The translations under genes were made by a program, and so were the position numbers. Source: Deltaproteobacteria bacterium TL4 (GTDB lineage: Bacteria; SAR324; NAC60-12). Taken from it: a stretch of DNA of 10,204 nt. The DNA lies in NCBI GenBank assembly GCA_051382335.1, contig JBBCAX010000313.1, forward strand, positions 1 through 10,204, read 5' to 3'. Position 1 is the first letter of the stretch. The number at the start of each line of letters is the position of its first letter. The notes under the pieces are model-generated. The model was not told the DNA's origin. It was given only the letters and a program-made list of their open reading frames with translations, and made no database searches. Positions 2,133 to 10,005 of this stretch are shown one piece after another.

Positions 2133-3431
2133 ATGGAAAGCAACTTAGTTAAACTAAAAAATAACGATGAGGAACCTCCACTTGGCCAATTGTCCAGCCT
2201 TGCCTCCCCATCCTACTCTATTTCTCTTGAAAAACTAAAGTCCCTCTCTTCACCGGCAGAAGACGAGTATCCAACTGTAATCAATCCAAAAACAGAAAAA
2301 TTCCGACAACGTTTCTTTCCCTACTCAACCCCAGAGTTATGGAATAGCTGGATCTGGCAGATCCGCAATCGAATCCAGAATATTGAGACTGTTTCATCAA
2401 TGCTGCAACTGTCCGAAAATGAAAAGAGTGCCATTGAGTGTTCTGAGAAATCTGTCCCTTTGAGCATCACACCTTACTATGCCAGTCTGCTTGACGAATT
2501 TGATCCCAAAGATCCCTTACGCATGACGGTGATTCCTGTCACTGAAGAAAACATCCGTCGGCCAGAAGAGGATATTGATCCTCTGTCTGAAAACTGTCAA
2601 AGTCCCGTGCCTGGATTAATCCAAAGGTATCCGGACCGTGTTTTATTTATGGTTACCGGATTTTGTTCTACCTATTGCCGTTACTGTACGCGGTCGAGGA
2701 TATTAGGTCATCAGGAAGAGTATCGTTTTACTAAAAAACGCTGGGAGCAGGCTCTTAAATACATTGAAAGGACGCCTGTCATCCGGGATGTCCTTTTGTC
2801 CGGAGGTGATGCCCTCACACTTTCTGACGATAGTTTAGAATGGCTTTTGTTCCGGTTGCGGCAAATTCCCCATGTTGAATTTATCAGAATTGGTACCAAG
2901 GTTCCTGTTGTCCTACCGCAGCGTATTACTCCGCAACTGGTTCAGATGTTACATAAATATCATCCGTTGTGGATGAGCATTCATTTTACACACCCCAATG
3001 AACTGACCCCTGAAGTGAAACAAGCCTGCTCCATGCTTTCGGACGCGGGCATTCCCCTGGGGAGTCAGACCGTGCTTTTGAAAGGTGTCAATGATGATGT
3101 AGAGACCATGAAAAAATTAATGCATGGTCTGCTGCGTTTCCGTGTGAGACCTTATTACATCTATCAGTGTGATCCTGTCGTGGGTTCCTCACATTTCCGT
3201 ACGCCAGTCAAAAAGGGGTTGGAAATCATTGCGGGCTTACGTGGCTATACCAGTGGCTATGCCGTTCCTACTTACGTCATTGATGCGCCTGGCGGTGGCG
3301 GCAAAATTCCTGTTCATCTTGATTCAATTCTCGGCTATGACGGAAATAATCTGCTCTTGAAGAATTATGAAGGCAAAACAGTTTCCTACCCAGATGATCC
3401 CACAGAAAAAATCAATTGGAGTGCCTCATGA
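2133..3431 (+). CDS. kamA: KamA-family PLP-dependent radical SAM amino-acid 2,3-aminomutase (lysine 2,3-aminomutase-like)
   Basis: RBS AAGGA at 2121-2125; QRYPDRVL, CSTYCRYCTR (CxxxCxxC), LLSGGD, IRIGTK, SQTVLLKGVND, PYYIYQCD and YVIDAPGGGGK(PLP)IP motifs. Confidence 0.93.
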   Translation: MESNLVKLKNNDEEPPLGQLSSLASPSYSISLEKLKSLSSPAEDEYPTVINPKTEKFRQRFFPYSTPELWNSWIWQIRNRIQNIETVSSMLQLSENEKSAIECSEKSVPLSITPYYASLLDEFDPKDPLRMTVIPVTEENIRRPEEDIDPLSENCQSPVPGLIQRYPDRVLFMVTGFCSTYCRYCTRSRILGHQEEYRFTKKRWEQALKYIERTPVIRDVLLSGGDALTLSDDSLEWLLFRLRQIPHVEFIRIGTKVPVVLPQRITPQLVQMLHKYHPLWMSIHFTHPNELTPEVKQACSMLSDAGIPLGSQTVLLKGVNDDVETMKKLMHGLLRFRVRPYYIYQCDPVVGSSHFRTPVKKGLEIIAGLRGYTSGYAVPTYVIDAPGGGGKIPVHLDSILGYDGNNLLLKNYEGKTVSYPDDPTEKINWSAS

Positions 3432-4423
3432 AAATTGGCATTACCTATGATCTCAGGGAAGAATACCTTGCCATGGGTTATAGTGAAGAGGAAACCGTAG
3501 AATTTGACCGACCCGATACCATTGAGGGGATCGAACAGGCGGTGCAACAGATGGGGTATGAAACGGAGAGGATCGGCCATATAAAAAAGCTGGCTAGCCT
3601 TCTGGTTCAGGGGAACCGCTGGGATTTGGTCTTCAATATTGCGGAAGGTGTGCACGGTTTTGGAAGGGAAGCGCAAGTTCCCTGTTTACTGGAGGCTTAT
3701 GGCCTTCCTTATACTTTTTCGGATCCCCTGCGTCAAACCTTGACCCTGCACAAAGGGATGACCAAACATGTGATTCGTGACTTGGGAATTCCTACTCCTG
3801 ATTTTTTAGTGGTGAAGGAAGAATCGGAGGTGGAGCGGCTGTGTCTCCCTTTTCCCGTTTTTGCCAAACCTGTCGCTGAAGGAACAGGCAGAGGCATAAA
3901 CGAGGACTCAAAAGTTCATAACATCACCGAATTGAGGAAAGTATGCCGCGGCCTGCTTGAGACTTACCAACAGCCTGTTTTAGTGGAAACGTTCCTTCCC
4001 GGAAGAGAGCTTACTGTCGGTATTACTGGAACGGGAAAAAAGGCCAAGGTGATGGGCGTGATGGAAGTTTTGTTACAAGCCAATGCGGAACGGGATATTT
4101 ACACTTACTCCAACAAAGCCCACTATGAGGACCGGGTCAAATACAGGGTGATCGACGGCGTTGTGGCTGAGGAAAGCGCGGATGTGGCCTTGAGGTCATG
4201 GAGGGGGTTAGGATGCTTTGATGGAGGTCGAATTGACCTGAGAATGGATGCCCAGGGGGTTCCCAATTTTCTGGAAGTCAATCCGCTGCCGGGGTTAAAT
4301 CCTCAGCATTCCGATCTTCCCATCCTTTGCCGATTGGCCGGGATCAGTTATCTGACACTGATTCGTGAAATTGTAGAATCGGCTCTGGAACGTGTGAAGG
4401 AAAGAGTCAAAGGGGTTCTATGA
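3428..4423 (+). CDS. D-Ala-D-Ala-ligase-like ATP-grasp amino acid ligase 1 (non-canonical specificity)
   Basis: Likely start is ATG 3428 (MKIGITYDLR), overlapping the kamA stop as ATGA, with GGAG at 3418-3421. Motifs FAKPVAEGTGRGI, VETFLPGRELTVG, GRIDLR and FLEVNPLPGL; lacks the Ddl GGxSxE motif. Confidence 0.88.
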   Translation: MKIGITYDLREEYLAMGYSEEETVEFDRPDTIEGIEQAVQQMGYETERIGHIKKLASLLVQGNRWDLVFNIAEGVHGFGREAQVPCLLEAYGLPYTFSDPLRQTLTLHKGMTKHVIRDLGIPTPDFLVVKEESEVERLCLPFPVFAKPVAEGTGRGINEDSKVHNITELRKVCRGLLETYQQPVLVETFLPGRELTVGITGTGKKAKVMGVMEVLLQANAERDIYTYSNKAHYEDRVKYRVIDGVVAEESADVALRSWRGLGCFDGGRIDLRMDAQGVPNFLEVNPLPGLNPQHSDLPILCRLAGISYLTLIREIVESALERVKERVKGVL

Positions 4424-6072
4424 AAGTGGTCATTTTACATGAGTATGTTCCTGAAAATGCCAGAAAAGATGAAGTCGACGTTTTGATTCAGGCCGAGGCC
4501 GTGTCTCAGGCTTTGTTACAGTTGGGGCATTGCCCCGAAACACTTTCCTTTTCTTTGGATCTTCCGTCCGTGCTTCGCGAGTTAGAGCGCATTAAACCTG
4601 ATTTGGTTTTCAATCTGGTAGAAACTGTGGAAGGTCAGGGGAATCTCATTTACTTTGCTCCCGCGTTGCTGGACTATCTGGGGATTCCCTATACTGGCGC
4701 AACGACGGAAGCTATGTTTTTAACTTCCAACAAAATATTGACCAAGCAGAAACTCCATAGCGTTGATATTCCTACCGCTCCCTGGTGCTCTCCAGGTCAC
4801 TCCCCTGCAATTTCTCTATCTTTTCCAGACCGGTATATTCTGAAGCTGGTTTGGGAAGAGGGTTCTGTGGGTTTGGACGAAGATTCTGTGATTTCCGCAA
4901 ACTCTCTGTCTCAACTTCAAGAAGCCCTCAACCAAAAGCGTAAGCAATATCAAAGAGAGGCTTTTGCGGAAAAGTACATTGAAGGGCGGGAATTCAATCT
5001 GTCCCTTTTGGCGGATGATCACGAAATTAAAGTCCTATCTCCTGCGGAAGTGTGTTTTGATGACTATACTCCCGAAAAAATATGTGTGGTCGGGTATCGT
5101 GCAAAATGGGAGAGTTCGTCGTTTGAATATACGCATACCCGGCGCTCTTTTGATTTTTCCCGGGAAGAGGCTCCTCTTCTGAACCGTATGACACAAATAG
5201 CTCAAGCTTGTTGGGGTTTGTTTGACTTGCGGGGATATGCCAGGGTTGATTTTCGTGTGGATGCCCGGGGAACTCCCTGGGTCCTGGAAATAAACGCCAA
5301 TCCCTGTATTTCGCCCGATGCCGGTTTTGTCGGGGCCGCTTGTCAGGATGGCTTGGAATTTCCAGAGGTGATTGCGCGCATCATAAGAGACAGTCTTCGT
5401 GCTCCAACTGAGCGAATTCGGACTATCGTCCAGAAATATTCCGATCAGCCATATCCTTCTGCGGAGGGAACACCGGTCAGGATTTCAACCAAAGTGAAAC
5501 AAAGCCCAGCCTTAAAAAAAGTAGAAGGCCTGACCTACCGTGAAAAAGCACAGCCTTCTGACTGTGCGGCTATCCAGAAAATTGTAGCGTCCAGTGGTTT
5601 TTTCTGTGAGGATGAAGTGAAGATCGCGGTGGAATTAGTCGAGGAACGCCTGGCTAAAGGGGAACGTAGCGGTTATTTTTTCATCTTTGCGGAACACTAC
5701 GGGGAAGTCATTGGCTATACCTGTTTTGGCCCGATTGATGGGACGCTGTTCAGTTTTGACTTTTACTGGTTGGCTGTTTTGGAAGAATGGCGGGGACGAG
5801 GCATTGGGATGGAGCTTATTCAAAGGACAGAGCAGTCAATTGCCAGGTCCGGAGGTACTCGTATTTATATAGAAACCTCCTCTCGTGACCAGTATACGCC
5901 AACGCGGAAATTATATTTGAAAACGGGTTATATCGAAGAGGCTGTCATTCAGGATTTCTATGCTCCAGGTGATGGCAAGGTGATTTATACAAAAGTAATG
6001 GATTCAGTCCGGGTCCAAAATCCTTCGTTGGAAACCGTTTCTCACAGTGATATTGAAGGAAAAACCTCCTAA
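4420..6072 (+). CDS. Fusion of Ddl-like ATP-grasp ligase 2 (aa 1 to about 325) and a C-terminal GNAT N-acetyltransferase (about aa 370-525)
   Basis: ATGA overlap with the previous gene; EKYIEGREFN, GYARVDFRVD, VLEINANP; about 45-aa linker; GNAT acetyl-CoA motif LAVLEEWRGRGIG and YIETSS..YTPTRKLYLKTGY. Confidence 0.88.
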   Translation: MKVVILHEYVPENARKDEVDVLIQAEAVSQALLQLGHCPETLSFSLDLPSVLRELERIKPDLVFNLVETVEGQGNLIYFAPALLDYLGIPYTGATTEAMFLTSNKILTKQKLHSVDIPTAPWCSPGHSPAISLSFPDRYILKLVWEEGSVGLDEDSVISANSLSQLQEALNQKRKQYQREAFAEKYIEGREFNLSLLADDHEIKVLSPAEVCFDDYTPEKICVVGYRAKWESSSFEYTHTRRSFDFSREEAPLLNRMTQIAQACWGLFDLRGYARVDFRVDARGTPWVLEINANPCISPDAGFVGAACQDGLEFPEVIARIIRDSLRAPTERIRTIVQKYSDQPYPSAEGTPVRISTKVKQSPALKKVEGLTYREKAQPSDCAAIQKIVASSGFFCEDEVKIAVELVEERLAKGERSGYFFIFAEHYGEVIGYTCFGPIDGTLFSFDFYWLAVLEEWRGRGIGMELIQRTEQSIARSGGTRIYIETSSRDQYTPTRKLYLKTGYIEEAVIQDFYAPGDGKVIYTKVMDSVRVQNPSLETVSHSDIEGKTS

Positions 6073-6133: not shown

Positions 6134-6664
6134 ATGAGTTACGGTGACTCCTTAAGCAAAAAAGACTGGGGTACTTTACAATTTGCTCCTTTCTGGGTTT
6201 TTGATCTGGTCGCACGTGCCGGTGATAACGAAATTGACAGAGGCGAACAAAAAACGTTACATGAAATTGTTCGTAATTCTGTTACCTACCAAAACGATTT
6301 GGTCCGCAAAATCCTGGCCTATATTAATGCTGATTTTGATAAACTGTTGTCCGCGTGTAAAGTTGATGCCAGAAAAGCGGTTGATGGTTTGAAAGAAGTG
6401 GCACAGATTGTTGAGACCTCCGCACCTAAAGACGTCAAGATGTTCAAAGTGTATATGTTTGTGATCGGCTATAAAATAGCGGCCTCTCCGGGGTTCTTGG
6501 GAGTAAAAAAGAAAGTGCGGCTGGAAGAGATAAAAGCGTTGGATGAAATCTGTAAAATATTTCAGTTTACACAAAAGGAATTGAAATATGCGATCTCTCT
6601 CGTCGGAGAGGATAACCCTGATGAACTGGAAGCCTCCTTCAAGAATTGGAAAGCTAAAGTGTAG
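6134..6664 (+). CDS. Hypothetical protein, TerB-like helical family
   Basis: 176-aa ORF with TerB-like motifs VARAGDNEIDRGE (cf. VAxADGxIDxxE) and KIAASPGFLG..KKVRLEEIKALDEI (cf. AEASGGFLG..ISxxE). Confidence 0.6.
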   Translation: MSYGDSLSKKDWGTLQFAPFWVFDLVARAGDNEIDRGEQKTLHEIVRNSVTYQNDLVRKILAYINADFDKLLSACKVDARKAVDGLKEVAQIVETSAPKDVKMFKVYMFVIGYKIAASPGFLGVKKKVRLEEIKALDEICKIFQFTQKELKYAISLVGEDNPDELEASFKNWKAKV

Positions 6665-6839
6665 TTTTCAGAGACTGACTGCTTTTCAAAAAAACGTTTG
6701 GAGTGCCCCTATTGAGGTACACGCTAAGCCTTAAATAAACCATTGGGATGGTAGGAGTCATTAAATTTTATTGGGGGTGTTCACTTCGTTGAGTCACACT
6801 CTATTGATGTTCATTGGCAAAAAGACTTTTAAGAGCATT

Positions 6840-8207
6840 ATGTTAGATAGCTTTCCTCATGTACTAAGGCGTTATGGTTTGGATGTAGATGTCCGCGTGT
6901 TACTGGAATTATTTAAAACCATGGAAATGGGCCTGGTTTCAAATTTAGGATCGCTGTTTGATGTAGGCCAACATTTAATCGTGAAAGCAAGGCGTGATAT
7001 CGCCCCTTATACCATGGCCTTTTGGGATTATTTTCTGGGCATTGAAGTCGCTCAATACCGAACCGTTGACGAAGCCATCCACCGTTCTTCCGCCTTTGAA
7101 CAATGGTATAGTCAAAAGCTGGAAACGGGTCAAATCGAGCAAGAGGTGGACCGAAAAAAGCTTGTGGATCAATTTCTCAACGAGGTACTGCAATCAGACT
7201 TACGAGCCAATATCCAAAAAGAACTCGATGCGCGGGAACTGTTGGATAAAGATAATCCTGACAGGGCCGACCAGCCTGATGATGGTTCGCGAAGACCTCC
7301 TAAAATGAATGAAAATAGGGTGGACTATGCTCAGATTCCTCTGGAAGAACTGATGGAGCGGATGAAGAAAGTTGCGGCGCAACAGAAATCACCACATCAT
7401 GGGGGAAGCCACTGGATTGGAACGCATGGCGTCTCTCCCTATGGGCATTCAGGACACGGCCTTAATGGAATCCGTGTTGGAGGCGCAAGTTATGCGGGTT
7501 CGGCACGTAAGGTGTTAGCAGACCCCCAGTACTTTCACGTTGATACCGATGCCCATTTGACCGATGATAACATGGATGTCGCGTTTCAGGCTTTAAAACA
7601 TGTGGTCGATCATCACCTGGAAACAAAACTGGATGTGGAAAAAACCGTTCAAAATACAGGAAAAAACGCGGGTATTTTATTTCCTTACTTTAAAAAAGAA
7701 AAACAAGATCTGACTCAAGTGATGCTTCTTCTGGATAATGGCGGAAACTCGATGGTGATGCATACCCGTCAAATTCAACGTCTTTTTTCAAAAATAAAAC
7801 GTCGCTTTACACATGACCTGAAAACTTATTACTTTCACAATACGATTTATGATCAGGTTTATGAGGATGAATCACGGAGAACTTCTGTCGCACTGGGGAA
7901 ATTGCTGGAACACACACCTGATTTTAAAGTATTCATTGTTGGAGACGCGCACATGGGACCGCATGAGGTGTTTTCTCCTTATGGCGCCATTGAACACCGG
8001 GAAGAATCCAAAACACCCAGCATTGAAAATTTACAAGCGCTCCGACAACACTTCCCGCATATGGTCTGGATCAACCCTATTGATCAAAAATACTGGTCTC
8101 ATACGGTGGCCTCAGTAATTCAGAAAATTATTCCAATGGAACCCTTGACGATTCATGGAATCGTCAAGGCCGTTCAACACATGAACTCCAAGCTGATTTT
8201 TTCATGA
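6840..8207 (+). CDS. VWA domain-containing protein (CoxE-like/COG3825 type, normally the partner of a MoxR AAA+ ATPase)
   Basis: HHGGSHWIGTHGVSPYG (family HxGGxxWIGTxGxSPxG), MIDAS-like LLLDNGGNSM, YYFHNTIYD, IVGDAHMGP, VWINP. ATG 6840 (MLDSFPHVLRRYGLDV) fits the family N-terminus better than TTG 6771. Confidence 0.8.
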   Translation: MLDSFPHVLRRYGLDVDVRVLLELFKTMEMGLVSNLGSLFDVGQHLIVKARRDIAPYTMAFWDYFLGIEVAQYRTVDEAIHRSSAFEQWYSQKLETGQIEQEVDRKKLVDQFLNEVLQSDLRANIQKELDARELLDKDNPDRADQPDDGSRRPPKMNENRVDYAQIPLEELMERMKKVAAQQKSPHHGGSHWIGTHGVSPYGHSGHGLNGIRVGGASYAGSARKVLADPQYFHVDTDAHLTDDNMDVAFQALKHVVDHHLETKLDVEKTVQNTGKNAGILFPYFKKEKQDLTQVMLLLDNGGNSMVMHTRQIQRLFSKIKRRFTHDLKTYYFHNTIYDQVYEDESRRTSVALGKLLEHTPDFKVFIVGDAHMGPHEVFSPYGAIEHREESKTPSIENLQALRQHFPHMVWINPIDQKYWSHTVASVIQKIIPMEPLTIHGIVKAVQHMNSKLIFS

Positions 8208-9940
8208 AAAAACCATCCTCCCGCTTCACTCCGGAGTCGGTAATTCTTCCTGAAGGGATTCGTCCGTTATCCAGCAAAAGCATTGAAAGCCTTGTCGAAG
8301 AATTGACTTCTTTACGTGCGGGACATGAGGAATTTGATTCCATCAGTGTGGATAATGCCATTCGTTTTTGTGAAAAACTGGACCTTGCTTTTGAAGACAT
8401 GCCACCGGAGGCTCGGGAACTGCTCATCCAAAATTATGAATTTTTTGAATCACAATACCAACTTACGCTTTTTTTGAAGTTTATCTTTCATGGAAAACTC
8501 GAAAATAAGGAAATTGTCTTCCGACACCTGTTTAAAAAATTATACGCGTCCTACTCCGTTTCCAAGTGTATCCTCGCGACCAAAACCTTGTTTGAAGATC
8601 AAACCATGGAAGAGCAGGTGGAGTATGAGCTTAAAGCGTTGATCGACACCATTACTCAAAGTTTTATTGAGATGCTTCCTCCCTCCTTGCTCGCCTCAAA
8701 AGAACCACGTTCCCTCCTGTGGCTCAACCAAATAATAGCACAGGAAGGCGCGATCTTTATTGAAGATGAAATCTCTTATGGCCAATTTGTCCGAGGCTTT
8801 ACGGATCTTCTGTATAATATCATCAGTCATGAGAAGCTCCCCTTCTACTTAAAGTGGAGAGATGAATATCTGAAGTACTGGTTGGTTACTATTTTGAGAG
8901 AAGAAGATCACCTGCAAGGAAAACTCATTCCCGAACTCAGTCAATTGAAAGCAGAAATTTATACAAGATATATCAGTTGGACTAAAATTTCCAAAAGACT
9001 TAACGCAAATTTACGTCACAAAGATACGTTTGATTCCGATATGACCCAACGTGCGGAAACGTTACTTCTGGGACGCTTGCCTTCTCAAATACTTGCTGAA
9101 ATTATTCTGAAAATACGTGAGATGATGCAACGGGAGGAATGCGAGGAGGTGGATCTTGGCTTTGAAGACAGATATGTGTCGGAAAATCGGATGTACGCTC
9201 ACATCATTGACGCTGTAAAACAAGATACGCTTAAAATTGCGCCCGAAGCGGCATCCTGGTTAGAAAATATGGTGAACTCCATGAAACAGATGTTTCATCT
9301 TCCACAGGATTTACCTGGCGCTGAAAATCACGAAATTCTTTTAAAGGAAAGAATTTTTCCAGAGCGGTTCATTGCTCCCGTGTCCACTTCAAAACCTGGT
9401 TTCGGACGTCATTTCCCGGAAGACTATGATGTTCAAATCCCTAAATATTTTAGAGTTTTTTTTAGTACTTACCGACAAAGTGTGAATGTTGAGTTTGATT
9501 TATTTGTTCGAGAATTACTGGACTACTACGAACAAACACAACCTAATATCCTGACTCAAACCCTACACCAACATACGCTGCCCAAAACGGGGAATAAGCT
9601 GGAGTTTATCGAAAAAAATATGGTACTGCCGCTCTCCGGACAAAACCTTTTAATGCTGGGTTCTACGTGTTTTATGAGACCCGGAGAAACCAATTGGAGT
9701 TCCGCTGAGCCTCAGTCCTATTTCCTCTTTTTTACCCCCCTTAAAACAACACCTCCCACAGAAACATTAAAATATAACAACAAGGTCTATCACAAAATTT
9801 CCTTAGATCAACTGGGGTTGCACAAAAAAGAAATTTTTAGCGGATTTTTGGAAATTCTGGATAGTTTACCGGACTCTCATCGCTCTAAAGAACCGATGCA
9901 AAAGCTCATCCAGACTTGTCACGAAAATAGGGACTCCTAG
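8204..9940 (+). CDS. Hypothetical 578-aa protein, predicted largely helical and cytoplasmic
   Basis: Long ORF with ATGA overlap to the VWA gene; no signal peptide, TM segment or catalytic motif recognised. Confidence 0.8.
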   Translation: MKKPSSRFTPESVILPEGIRPLSSKSIESLVEELTSLRAGHEEFDSISVDNAIRFCEKLDLAFEDMPPEARELLIQNYEFFESQYQLTLFLKFIFHGKLENKEIVFRHLFKKLYASYSVSKCILATKTLFEDQTMEEQVEYELKALIDTITQSFIEMLPPSLLASKEPRSLLWLNQIIAQEGAIFIEDEISYGQFVRGFTDLLYNIISHEKLPFYLKWRDEYLKYWLVTILREEDHLQGKLIPELSQLKAEIYTRYISWTKISKRLNANLRHKDTFDSDMTQRAETLLLGRLPSQILAEIILKIREMMQREECEEVDLGFEDRYVSENRMYAHIIDAVKQDTLKIAPEAASWLENMVNSMKQMFHLPQDLPGAENHEILLKERIFPERFIAPVSTSKPGFGRHFPEDYDVQIPKYFRVFFSTYRQSVNVEFDLFVRELLDYYEQTQPNILTQTLHQHTLPKTGNKLEFIEKNMVLPLSGQNLLMLGSTCFMRPGETNWSSAEPQSYFLFFTPLKTTPPTETLKYNNKVYHKISLDQLGLHKKEIFSGFLEILDSLPDSHRSKEPMQKLIQTCHENRDS

Positions 9941-9956
9941 ACGTTATTCCCCGCCT

Positions 9957-10005
9957 TTTCCCAGCGATAAATCGCTGGGAAATTTTCATAAGGTCCCTCC
10001 GTGAC
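9957..10005. repeat. Perfect palindrome (REP-like and/or bidirectional terminator) with a degenerate second mini-hairpin
   Basis: TTTCCCAGCGAT-AA-ATCGCTGGGAAA (9957-9982) followed by TTTT, then GTCCCTCCGTGAC (9993-10005). Confidence 0.6.

Follow-up and report, generated by a model that had tools for sequence, protein, structure and literature searches.

A contig of 10,204 bases from Deltaproteobacteria bacterium TL4 (JBBCAX010000313.1), analysed over its entire length and referred to here as the window, carries three chained genes: kamA, encoding a lysine 2,3-aminomutase-type enzyme; ligA, encoding an ATP-grasp ligase of the D-Ala-D-Ala ligase (Ddl) fold; and a gene for a second such ligase, LigB, fused to a GNAT acetyltransferase. 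We propose, at about even odds (a probability of roughly 0.5), that this operon makes a small cationic beta-lysine amide, likely acetylated, and that a proline-pair signal at the start of kamA throttles the operon through ribosome pausing. The proposal is built on directly observed gene content, synteny, gene fusions, intact catalytic motifs, a codon-level motif and a C-skew in the RNA. The original prediction, made from this DNA without database searches, had outlined the three open reading frames (ORFs), and we recovered all of them at the same positions (Table 1), with ligA starting at the ATG at 3428 and the ligB::GNAT gene spanning 4420–6072 (550 amino acids), together with its ATGA overlaps at 3428–3431 and 4420–4423. 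Scans against Pfam/NCBIfam profiles also found the four catalytic domains that it had named: Radical_SAM plus LAM_C in the first protein, Dala_Dala_lig_C in the second and Dala_Dala_lig_C plus GNAT in the third.

The genes are conserved together, as that prediction required, with co-occurrence far above chance. The synteny set comprised 62 genome loci, 80 metagenome loci and one viral locus, the genome loci coming, by their record titles, from Syntrophaceae, Smithella, Desulfobacterales, Bacteroidales, Planctomycetota, Verrucomicrobiota and Bacillota. Among loci with enough flanking sequence, ligB came after ligA in 108 of 116, kamA lay upstream of ligA in 86 of 101 and GNAT lay downstream in 73 of 87. 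Where both flanks were available, all four functions were present in 55 of 77 loci, and kamA, ligA and ligB in 60. GNAT is a separate gene in most relatives, and the ligB::GNAT fusion of the window occurs in 7/143 loci. Each neighbouring gene pair is joined by some natural fusion: the best 120 long LigA homologues comprised 70 ligA::ligB and 22 kamA::ligA fusions, one ligA::ligB::GNAT and one CxxCxxCC::ligA::ligB protein, and 26 more distant tandem ligases. The distribution of the ligases is patchy. They occur in 8 of 88 genomes of the host's own phylum, and the ligA family, annotated as D-Ala-D-Ala ligase, was found in 79 of 301 sampled genomes of a large anaerobe phylum (that of genome G048; 49 of them close) as well as in Bacteroidota, Planctomycetota and others. 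Phage records gave weak or Ddl matches only, and a single viral contig, from IMG/VR (L168, 6001–6999), has ligA alone, amid methyltransferase- and glycosyltransferase-looking genes. A Bacillota locus (L064, 5845–8936) also has a lone ligA, with genes for an M20 peptidase and, ahead of it, a hydrolase of the metallo-beta-lactamase fold downstream; the fermentation kamA of that genome lies elsewhere. Rhizobial plasmid homologues (~33% identity) were rejected as the same system, being single ligases in other contexts.

KamA likely turns L-lysine into beta-lysine, judging from its active-site residues. It scores well above the family cut-off (TIGR00238, 357 bits against 199) and has the CxxxCxxC motif and the lysine for pyridoxal phosphate (PLP). 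Residues C178/C182/C185, R187, D347, D384 and K391 align to C125/C129/C132, R134, D293, D330 and K337 of the Clostridium lysine 2,3-aminomutase structure 2A5H (Table 1), in which we take R134, D293 and D330 to be the lysine-binding residues. The protein falls below the cut-offs for AblA (479 against 525 bits), EpmB (261 against 369) and the glutamate and arginine mutases (434 against 650 and 395 against 600). Thus, where the original prediction had allowed for beta-lysine or another basic beta-amino acid, the kept lysine-site residues and the failed glutamate and arginine mutase models make KamA look lysine-specific. KamA carries a variable N-terminal tail of ~60 amino acids and, unlike the Clostridium enzyme, has no C-terminal multimerisation region. 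At least one KamA-family gene over the cut-off was present in 50 of 50 ligase-bearing genomes, and a lysine-fermentation kamA was found elsewhere in four of five checked genomes that have none adjacent to the ligases. The TL4 genome (6.6 Mb) has a second, stand-alone KamA on contig C182. The idea that the KamA tail is an obligatory ligase carrier is disfavoured, as the ligases persist in genomes whose only KamA is tail-less. Several Bacteroidales have KamA-like proteins of ~700 amino acids that score under the family cut-off (L073–L075).

LigA and LigB are 26% identical to each other. The possibility that they simply make D-Ala-D-Ala, raised in the original prediction as one that would undo it, did not hold: against a Ddl family cut-off of 243 bits LigA scores 152 and LigB 103, the Ddl motifs GGxSxEHEVS, HGxxGED and YxYxAKY are replaced in both proteins when aligned to the genome's own Ddl, and that true ddl lies on contig C388, after aspS, at 464 bits against a cut-off of 457. 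Because the genome has this separate ddl, the window ligases are extra to cell-wall synthesis. The ATP-grasp lysines, R-x-D and E-x-N are kept in both ligases (alignments of 31 and 24 sequences, and 68 fusion proteins), so both look able to bind ATP; LigA keeps K109, K147, E187, R268, D270, E283, N285 and G289, and LigB keeps K105, K142, E184, E191, R275, D277, E290 and N292. Invariant acidic residues (E25, D27, E73 and E81) replace the D-Ala-site motifs in LigA and would suit a diamine. Cys296 of LigB, where Ddl and LigA have Gly, is present in 24 of 24 family sequences and 63 of 68 fusion proteins. A structure model of LigB (predicted local distance difference test score 93.5) gave DdlA 8EVV as its top fold match (Z 32.6, root-mean-square deviation 2.6 over 296 residues); its top structure matches are all known Ddl, with other ATP-grasps, including PylC, at Z ≤22. 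Either two-step ligation or a heterodimeric ligase had been envisaged, and the frequent ligA::ligB fusions fit the two-subunit version. LigA and LigB probably form a heterodimer built like the Ddl homodimer. Altogether, the pair shares its fold and ATP/acyl-phosphate residues with Ddl/Van ligases but differs from them in being only ~23–30% identical, in scoring under every cut-off, in comprising two divergent, often fused paralogues and in its replaced D-Ala-site motifs. Single ligases of a distant subfamily (L234–L239) have a kamA ~3.7 kb downstream that lacks the proline-pair tail described below. At L244 and L245, the gene directly upstream of a distant ligase pair without kamA presumably resembles a pyruvoyl-dependent arginine decarboxylase, hinting at a polyamine-type substrate in that ligase subfamily.

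The GNAT domain is nearest in the Protein Data Bank to 2R7H (Table 1), a structural-genomics entry deposited as a putative D-alanine acetyltransferase. It is not AblB (TIGR03827, 17.8 bits against a cut-off of 205). Among the 77 two-flank loci, 16 have a gene for a deacetylase and 11 a gene for a CxxCxxCC protein. The linked deacetylase is nearest to acetylpolyamine amidohydrolases (6PHR, E 5.8e-72; 3Q9B, E 1.2e-61), a kinship pointing to a small acetylated amine as the product. In Desulfobacterales, GNAT::deacetylase::GNAT triple fusions (for example L022, 8028–10289, and L024, 8032–10323) place both acetylating and deacetylating domains in one chain. A DUF486 membrane protein is encoded between ligB and GNAT in eight loci. 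Smithella-like genomes (L005, L007, L008, L012, L020, L050 and kin) have a DUF47/phosphate-transporter pair downstream of GNAT in 19 loci, with lysA beyond it in nine, an arrangement that may be lineage synteny.

Since every ligase-bearing genome checked has a KamA-family gene, a fermentation kamA is usually found where the adjacent gene is missing and the deacetylase is of the amidohydrolase type, free beta-lysine is favoured as the substrate and a small acetylated amine as the product. In the proposed pathway, LigA and LigB would spend ATP on activating a carboxylate. The likeliest is that of the beta-lysine made by KamA, and once activated it would be joined to an amine, which could be that of lysine, a second beta-lysine or a polyamine. 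GNAT would then acetylate a free amine, the amidohydrolase-like enzyme, where present, would remove the acetyl group, and the DUF486 protein may export the product.

Known systems offer partial parallels. AblA and AblB, which make N-epsilon-acetyl-beta-lysine, likewise combine in one operon a KamA-type mutase bearing the lysine-site residues with a GNAT, but in the window the two are separated by a pair of ATP-grasp ligases, the GNAT belongs to another family and KamA has an N-terminal tail and no C-terminal region. In pyrrolysine synthesis, the radical S-adenosylmethionine lysine mutase PylB feeds the ATP-grasp PylC, which forms an amide to another amino group. There, however, the mutase family and product differ from ours, and the window operon has two ligases and an acetyltransferase and no PylD, synthetase or tRNA; the PylC structure 4FFL matches the LigB model at Z 18.6, well below Ddl, and no Pyl family matched any of the three proteins in the profile scan. 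In EF-P modification, too, a KamA homologue (EpmB) supplies beta-lysine, whose carboxylate EpmA links to an amine of EF-P, but the window ligase is an ATP-grasp and not a LysRS paralogue, has no efp linkage and coexists with a complete efp–epmA pair. The proposed pathway thus resembles an AblA/AblB route to which a PylC-like ligation has been added, and it is a member of neither. PMC2821294 tells efp-linked from ablB-linked aminomutases and, where it does so, makes no mention of D-alanine ligases. A literature search, with most subscription journals outside it, found no description of the operon or of the element at its head, in keeping with the original prediction that no product had been characterised.

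That element, which the original prediction had overlooked along with the C-rich stretch behind it, reads D12-E13-E14-P15-P16-L17 in the window, with the codons GAA CCT CCA at 2172–2180. The pattern acidic-E-P-P-(G/S) is the sole constant feature of the variable tail of operon KamA proteins. Of 97 uncut genes, 91 encode it, three in a Pro-Gly form. With likely kamA starts picked by a simple Shine–Dalgarno (SD) score, the motif Glu lies a median of 11 codons past the start and 21–89 codons ahead of the enzyme core. Within the first 35 codons, the pattern occurred in one of 2811 ORFs of the host genome, kamA itself. Conservation extends to synonymous codons. Of 90 genes, 78 have CCT as the first Pro codon and 11 have CCC, whereas codon usage within the individual genes would predict CCT in 20; in loci of at least 55% GC it is CCT in 23 of 26, against 1.8 expected. 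The Gly after the proline pair is encoded by GGT in 52 of 58 genes (7.9 expected). After removal of sequences more than 80% identical, the first Pro was CCT or CCC in 52 of 53 genes, and at 34 other invariant Pro or Gly sites no single codon exceeded 60%. Later-fetched, held-out loci, some of them kin of earlier ones, gave the same picture: of 24 loci, 21 had kamA and 20 could be scored, and the motif was present in 20 of 20, with CCT in 19 and CCC in one. Three of these genes, whose core never uses CCT, still have the CCT/CCC pattern at the motif, and the 21st kamA shows CCT. Three operon loci with a distant KamA also have the motif; a KamA tree from a quick, unfinished search supports only the placement of the L231/L232 KamA outside the main operon clade.

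The element thus has conserved pause codons near the start codon, as expected of a leader. It is not a separate short leader ORF: in the window, as in all but a few loci, it forms part of kamA itself. In two kamA-less loci (L215 and L217), the start and the motif, at codon 12, are kept as a separate ORF of 153–191 codons before ligA, with different stops. In kamA-less Bacteroidales (L038, L041–L046, L055), a conserved stretch of ~45 bases ahead of ligA contains a hairpin of 5 bp that covers the ribosome-binding site, and perhaps an ORF of 12–13 codons ending at the ligA start; the stretch is absent in L049 and L051. Rfam gave no match, and no RNA dataset was listed among the sequencing runs holding the sequence. 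No conserved shifted-frame product follows the motif, as the spacing to the next stop varies from gene to gene (in the +1 frame its median is 15 codons). A sigma-54 promoter was seen in 6/51 loci against 1/51 controls, and not in this window.

Behind the motif, the RNA has more C than G in 45 of 51 genes, and in 35 of 51 at fourfold sites; in 47 of 51 its predicted folding is weaker than that of the core. No such skew was found in 101 unrelated gene starts. In the window this stretch (2184–2303) resembles a Rho site and is a candidate for one; Rho utilisation (rut) sites defy reliable prediction. No intrinsic terminator was found in the kamA tail, and the host genome has the Rho gene.

Several systems suggest how such an arrangement could work. 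The CCC/U-C sequence is described as a +1 slippery sequon that is selected against in bacteria, and CadC as using such codons to limit its copy number (PMC8129111). In E. coli reporters, PPG or polyproline at an ORF start, followed by a C-rich rut site, is reported to lead to Rho termination when EF-P is absent (PMC5021804). The MgtL leader is described as joining prolines with acidic residues to pause or destabilise ribosomes at low Mg2+ (PMC12856214), and polyamines as competing with eIF5A and causing pausing at a PPW motif (PMC8705083). Proline-dependent translation control is the theme shared by Salmonella MgtL, the codon-tuned Pro triplet of E. coli CadC, the PPG-plus-rut reporters and eukaryotic AZIN1 PPW. 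Like these, the window combines acidic residues and prolines, slow CCU/CCC codons and a C-rich Rho-type stretch behind, all near a start; unlike them, its element is in frame with the first enzyme, in most genomes lacks a separate stop codon and heads a biosynthetic operon. By analogy with the E. coli reporters, ribosomes would slow, slip or drop off at acidic-E-P(CCU)-P, ~11 codons into kamA, the C-rich stretch would be left bare and Rho would end transcription. The weakest step is the signal, for which we prefer the product itself or the polyamine/Mg2+ state, either of which would give feedback. A pause that turns the operon down would be expected if the product impedes Pro-Pro synthesis and so feeds back, or if the operon is shut off at low polyamine or Mg2+. 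In an extended version, which we regard as unlikely, a beta-lysyl amide made by a heterodimeric Ddl-fold ligase would mimic the modified EF-P tip or a polyamine and feed back through the in-gene attenuator, a bacterial counterpart of polyamine/eIF5A sensing.

A number of observations weigh against our proposal. GNAT was not found in 14 of 87 loci, nor ligB in 8 of 116 (one of these being a ligA::ligB fusion). The motif is absent from 6 of 97 KamA proteins and, by inspection, from nine scorable kamA loci of distant ligase subfamilies (L230, L234–L242), and in this window Leu, rather than the usual Gly or Ser, follows the proline pair. The two loci with only the leader are closely related, and what they hold may be a kamA remnant; no such leader was found in the kamA-less Bacteroidales clade. 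Reduced folding is seen at the starts of ligA genes as well (26 of 31), together with a mild C-skew at fourfold sites, so that part of the weak folding is common to 5' ends in general, and the kamA tail is Ser/Pro-rich. Finally, the sequences are related, so p-values are overstated.

The best-surviving alternative is that the element is a docking peptide for a protein, or an RNA site such as an anti-SD hairpin or a regulator site, and no ribosome pause; we consider it possible but clearly less probable than pausing. CCTCC equals the anti-SD sequence, 24 of 74 genes have a GGAGG no more than 30 nucleotides upstream, with which a hairpin could form, and the preference for GGT/AGT after the proline pair lacks a clear decoding explanation. 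However, 35 of 74 genes have no nearby GGAGG, and with no consistent pairing partner an anti-SD hairpin was ruled out as the general cause of the motif. Nor was there GAG enrichment or a net gain in stability from CCT, and the element is predicted to be unpaired in this window. As for docking, the Glu and the proline pair are conserved at the amino-acid level within a tail that looks disordered, but a docking peptide would not fix synonymous codons, and the ligases are also kept where the sole KamA has no tail.

It is rather unlikely that the product is a compatible solute, an N-acetyl-beta-lysine peptide extended for salt stress, which was the lead reading of the original prediction. The KamA and GNAT pair does parallel AblA/AblB, acetylation would neutralise charge, and the hosts are, by record title, largely sediment and digester anaerobes. 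Yet the GNAT falls far short of AblB, no osmolyte transporter recurs beside the operon, and the ATP cost of extra amide bonds is needless for N-acetyl-beta-lysine. The rare pause signal, moreover, suggests low, tuned expression and not bulk synthesis.

We find it improbable that the ligases are an ATP-grasp substitute for EpmA which puts beta-lysine onto EF-P, or onto some other protein, with the Pro-Pro signal reporting EF-P activity. An EF-P-type pause motif does head the operon, an ATP-grasp could form the same isopeptide bond by established chemistry, EpmA was found in none of 15 ligase-bearing Bacteroidales genomes, and GNAT plus deacetylase could act on a protein. The original prediction's statement that the window lacks epmA, kamDE and mur genes held for the seven main ORFs scanned, but an efp–epmA pair, with EpmA passing its cut-off, sits elsewhere in the genome, on contig C150, so EF-P already has its ligase. 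EpmA is over the cut-off in 21 of 50 ligase-bearing genomes, the host included, often with an efp-linked KamA of its own, and neither efp nor epmA was found in the 152 loci searched. The EF-P tip, in these incomplete genomes, is PGKG in 25 of 27 and PGNL, with Asn, in two of 27; three operon genomes have the Pro-flanked loop of Bacteroidota EF-P that is described as active unmodified (PMC12856214). The deacetylase is of the small-molecule polyamine type, and a pause in kamA would lower output when EF-P is unmodified, which is the wrong sign for a supplier of the modification.

Least probable of all is an altered peptidoglycan or envelope building block (a Van-like dipeptide or side chain), an option of the original prediction that proved weak: although the nearest solved folds and sequences are all Ddl/Van ligases, 2R7H carries its D-alanine label and a peptidoglycan-binding protein is encoded upstream in the window, that gene is 505 bases off and not a recurrent neighbour, no mur, racemase or van gene recurs beside the operon, the ligases score far under Ddl cut-offs while the genome's own ddl passes, their D-Ala-site motifs are replaced, and their distribution is patchy.

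Other genes noted in the window lie on the same strand as the operon. The upstream gene just mentioned (1214–1627, +) encodes a secreted-looking protein of 137 amino acids with a C-terminal PG_binding_1 domain and contains an 18-base repeat (EKEAVV/EKKAVV) in 4.4 copies at 1346–1425. An ORF of 176 amino acids (6134–6664, +) starts 61 bases past the GNAT stop, has a weak DUF5858 match only and probably lies outside the cassette, as it does not recur beside relatives' operons. Further on, two ORFs of 478 and 578 amino acids (6771–9940, +; ATGA overlap at 8204–8207) have no Pfam match; the former presumably resembles a VWA/CoxE-type protein through its LLLDNGGNSM motif. A perfect inverted repeat lies 3' of this pair, at ~9952–9980.

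Table 1. Operon features in the window
Feature	Position	Strand	Evidence
kamA, lysine 2,3-aminomutase-type radical SAM/PLP enzyme, 432 amino acids	2133..3431	+	Pfam/NCBIfam; PDB 2A5H, E 6e-135
Acidic-Glu-Pro-Pro element, predicted ribosome pause/slippage site	2166..2183	+	Motif and codon conservation
Coding stretch rich in C (37 C, 15 G) and weakly folded, candidate site of Rho loading	2184..2303	+	Composition and predicted folding
ligA, Ddl-fold ATP-grasp ligase, 331 amino acids	3428..4423	+	Profile scan, alignments
ligB domain, second Ddl-fold ATP-grasp ligase, amino acids 1–330	4420..5409	+	Alignments, structure model
GNAT acetyltransferase domain fused to LigB, amino acids ~371–525	5530..6072	+	Pfam; PDB 2R7H, E 4.9e-34

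The operon is real and widespread, and its pathway a seemingly uncharacterised variant, with a testable control element at the level of translation. If our proposal is true, the operon is a candidate source both of a Ddl-fold ligase with two subunits and of a new metabolite containing beta-lysine. It would also show in nature the coupling of a Pro-Pro pair to a Rho site, so far shown mostly with artificial reporters. The codon-level signal would offer a cheap handle on the system, since what the cell senses could reveal the role of the product before its chemistry is solved.

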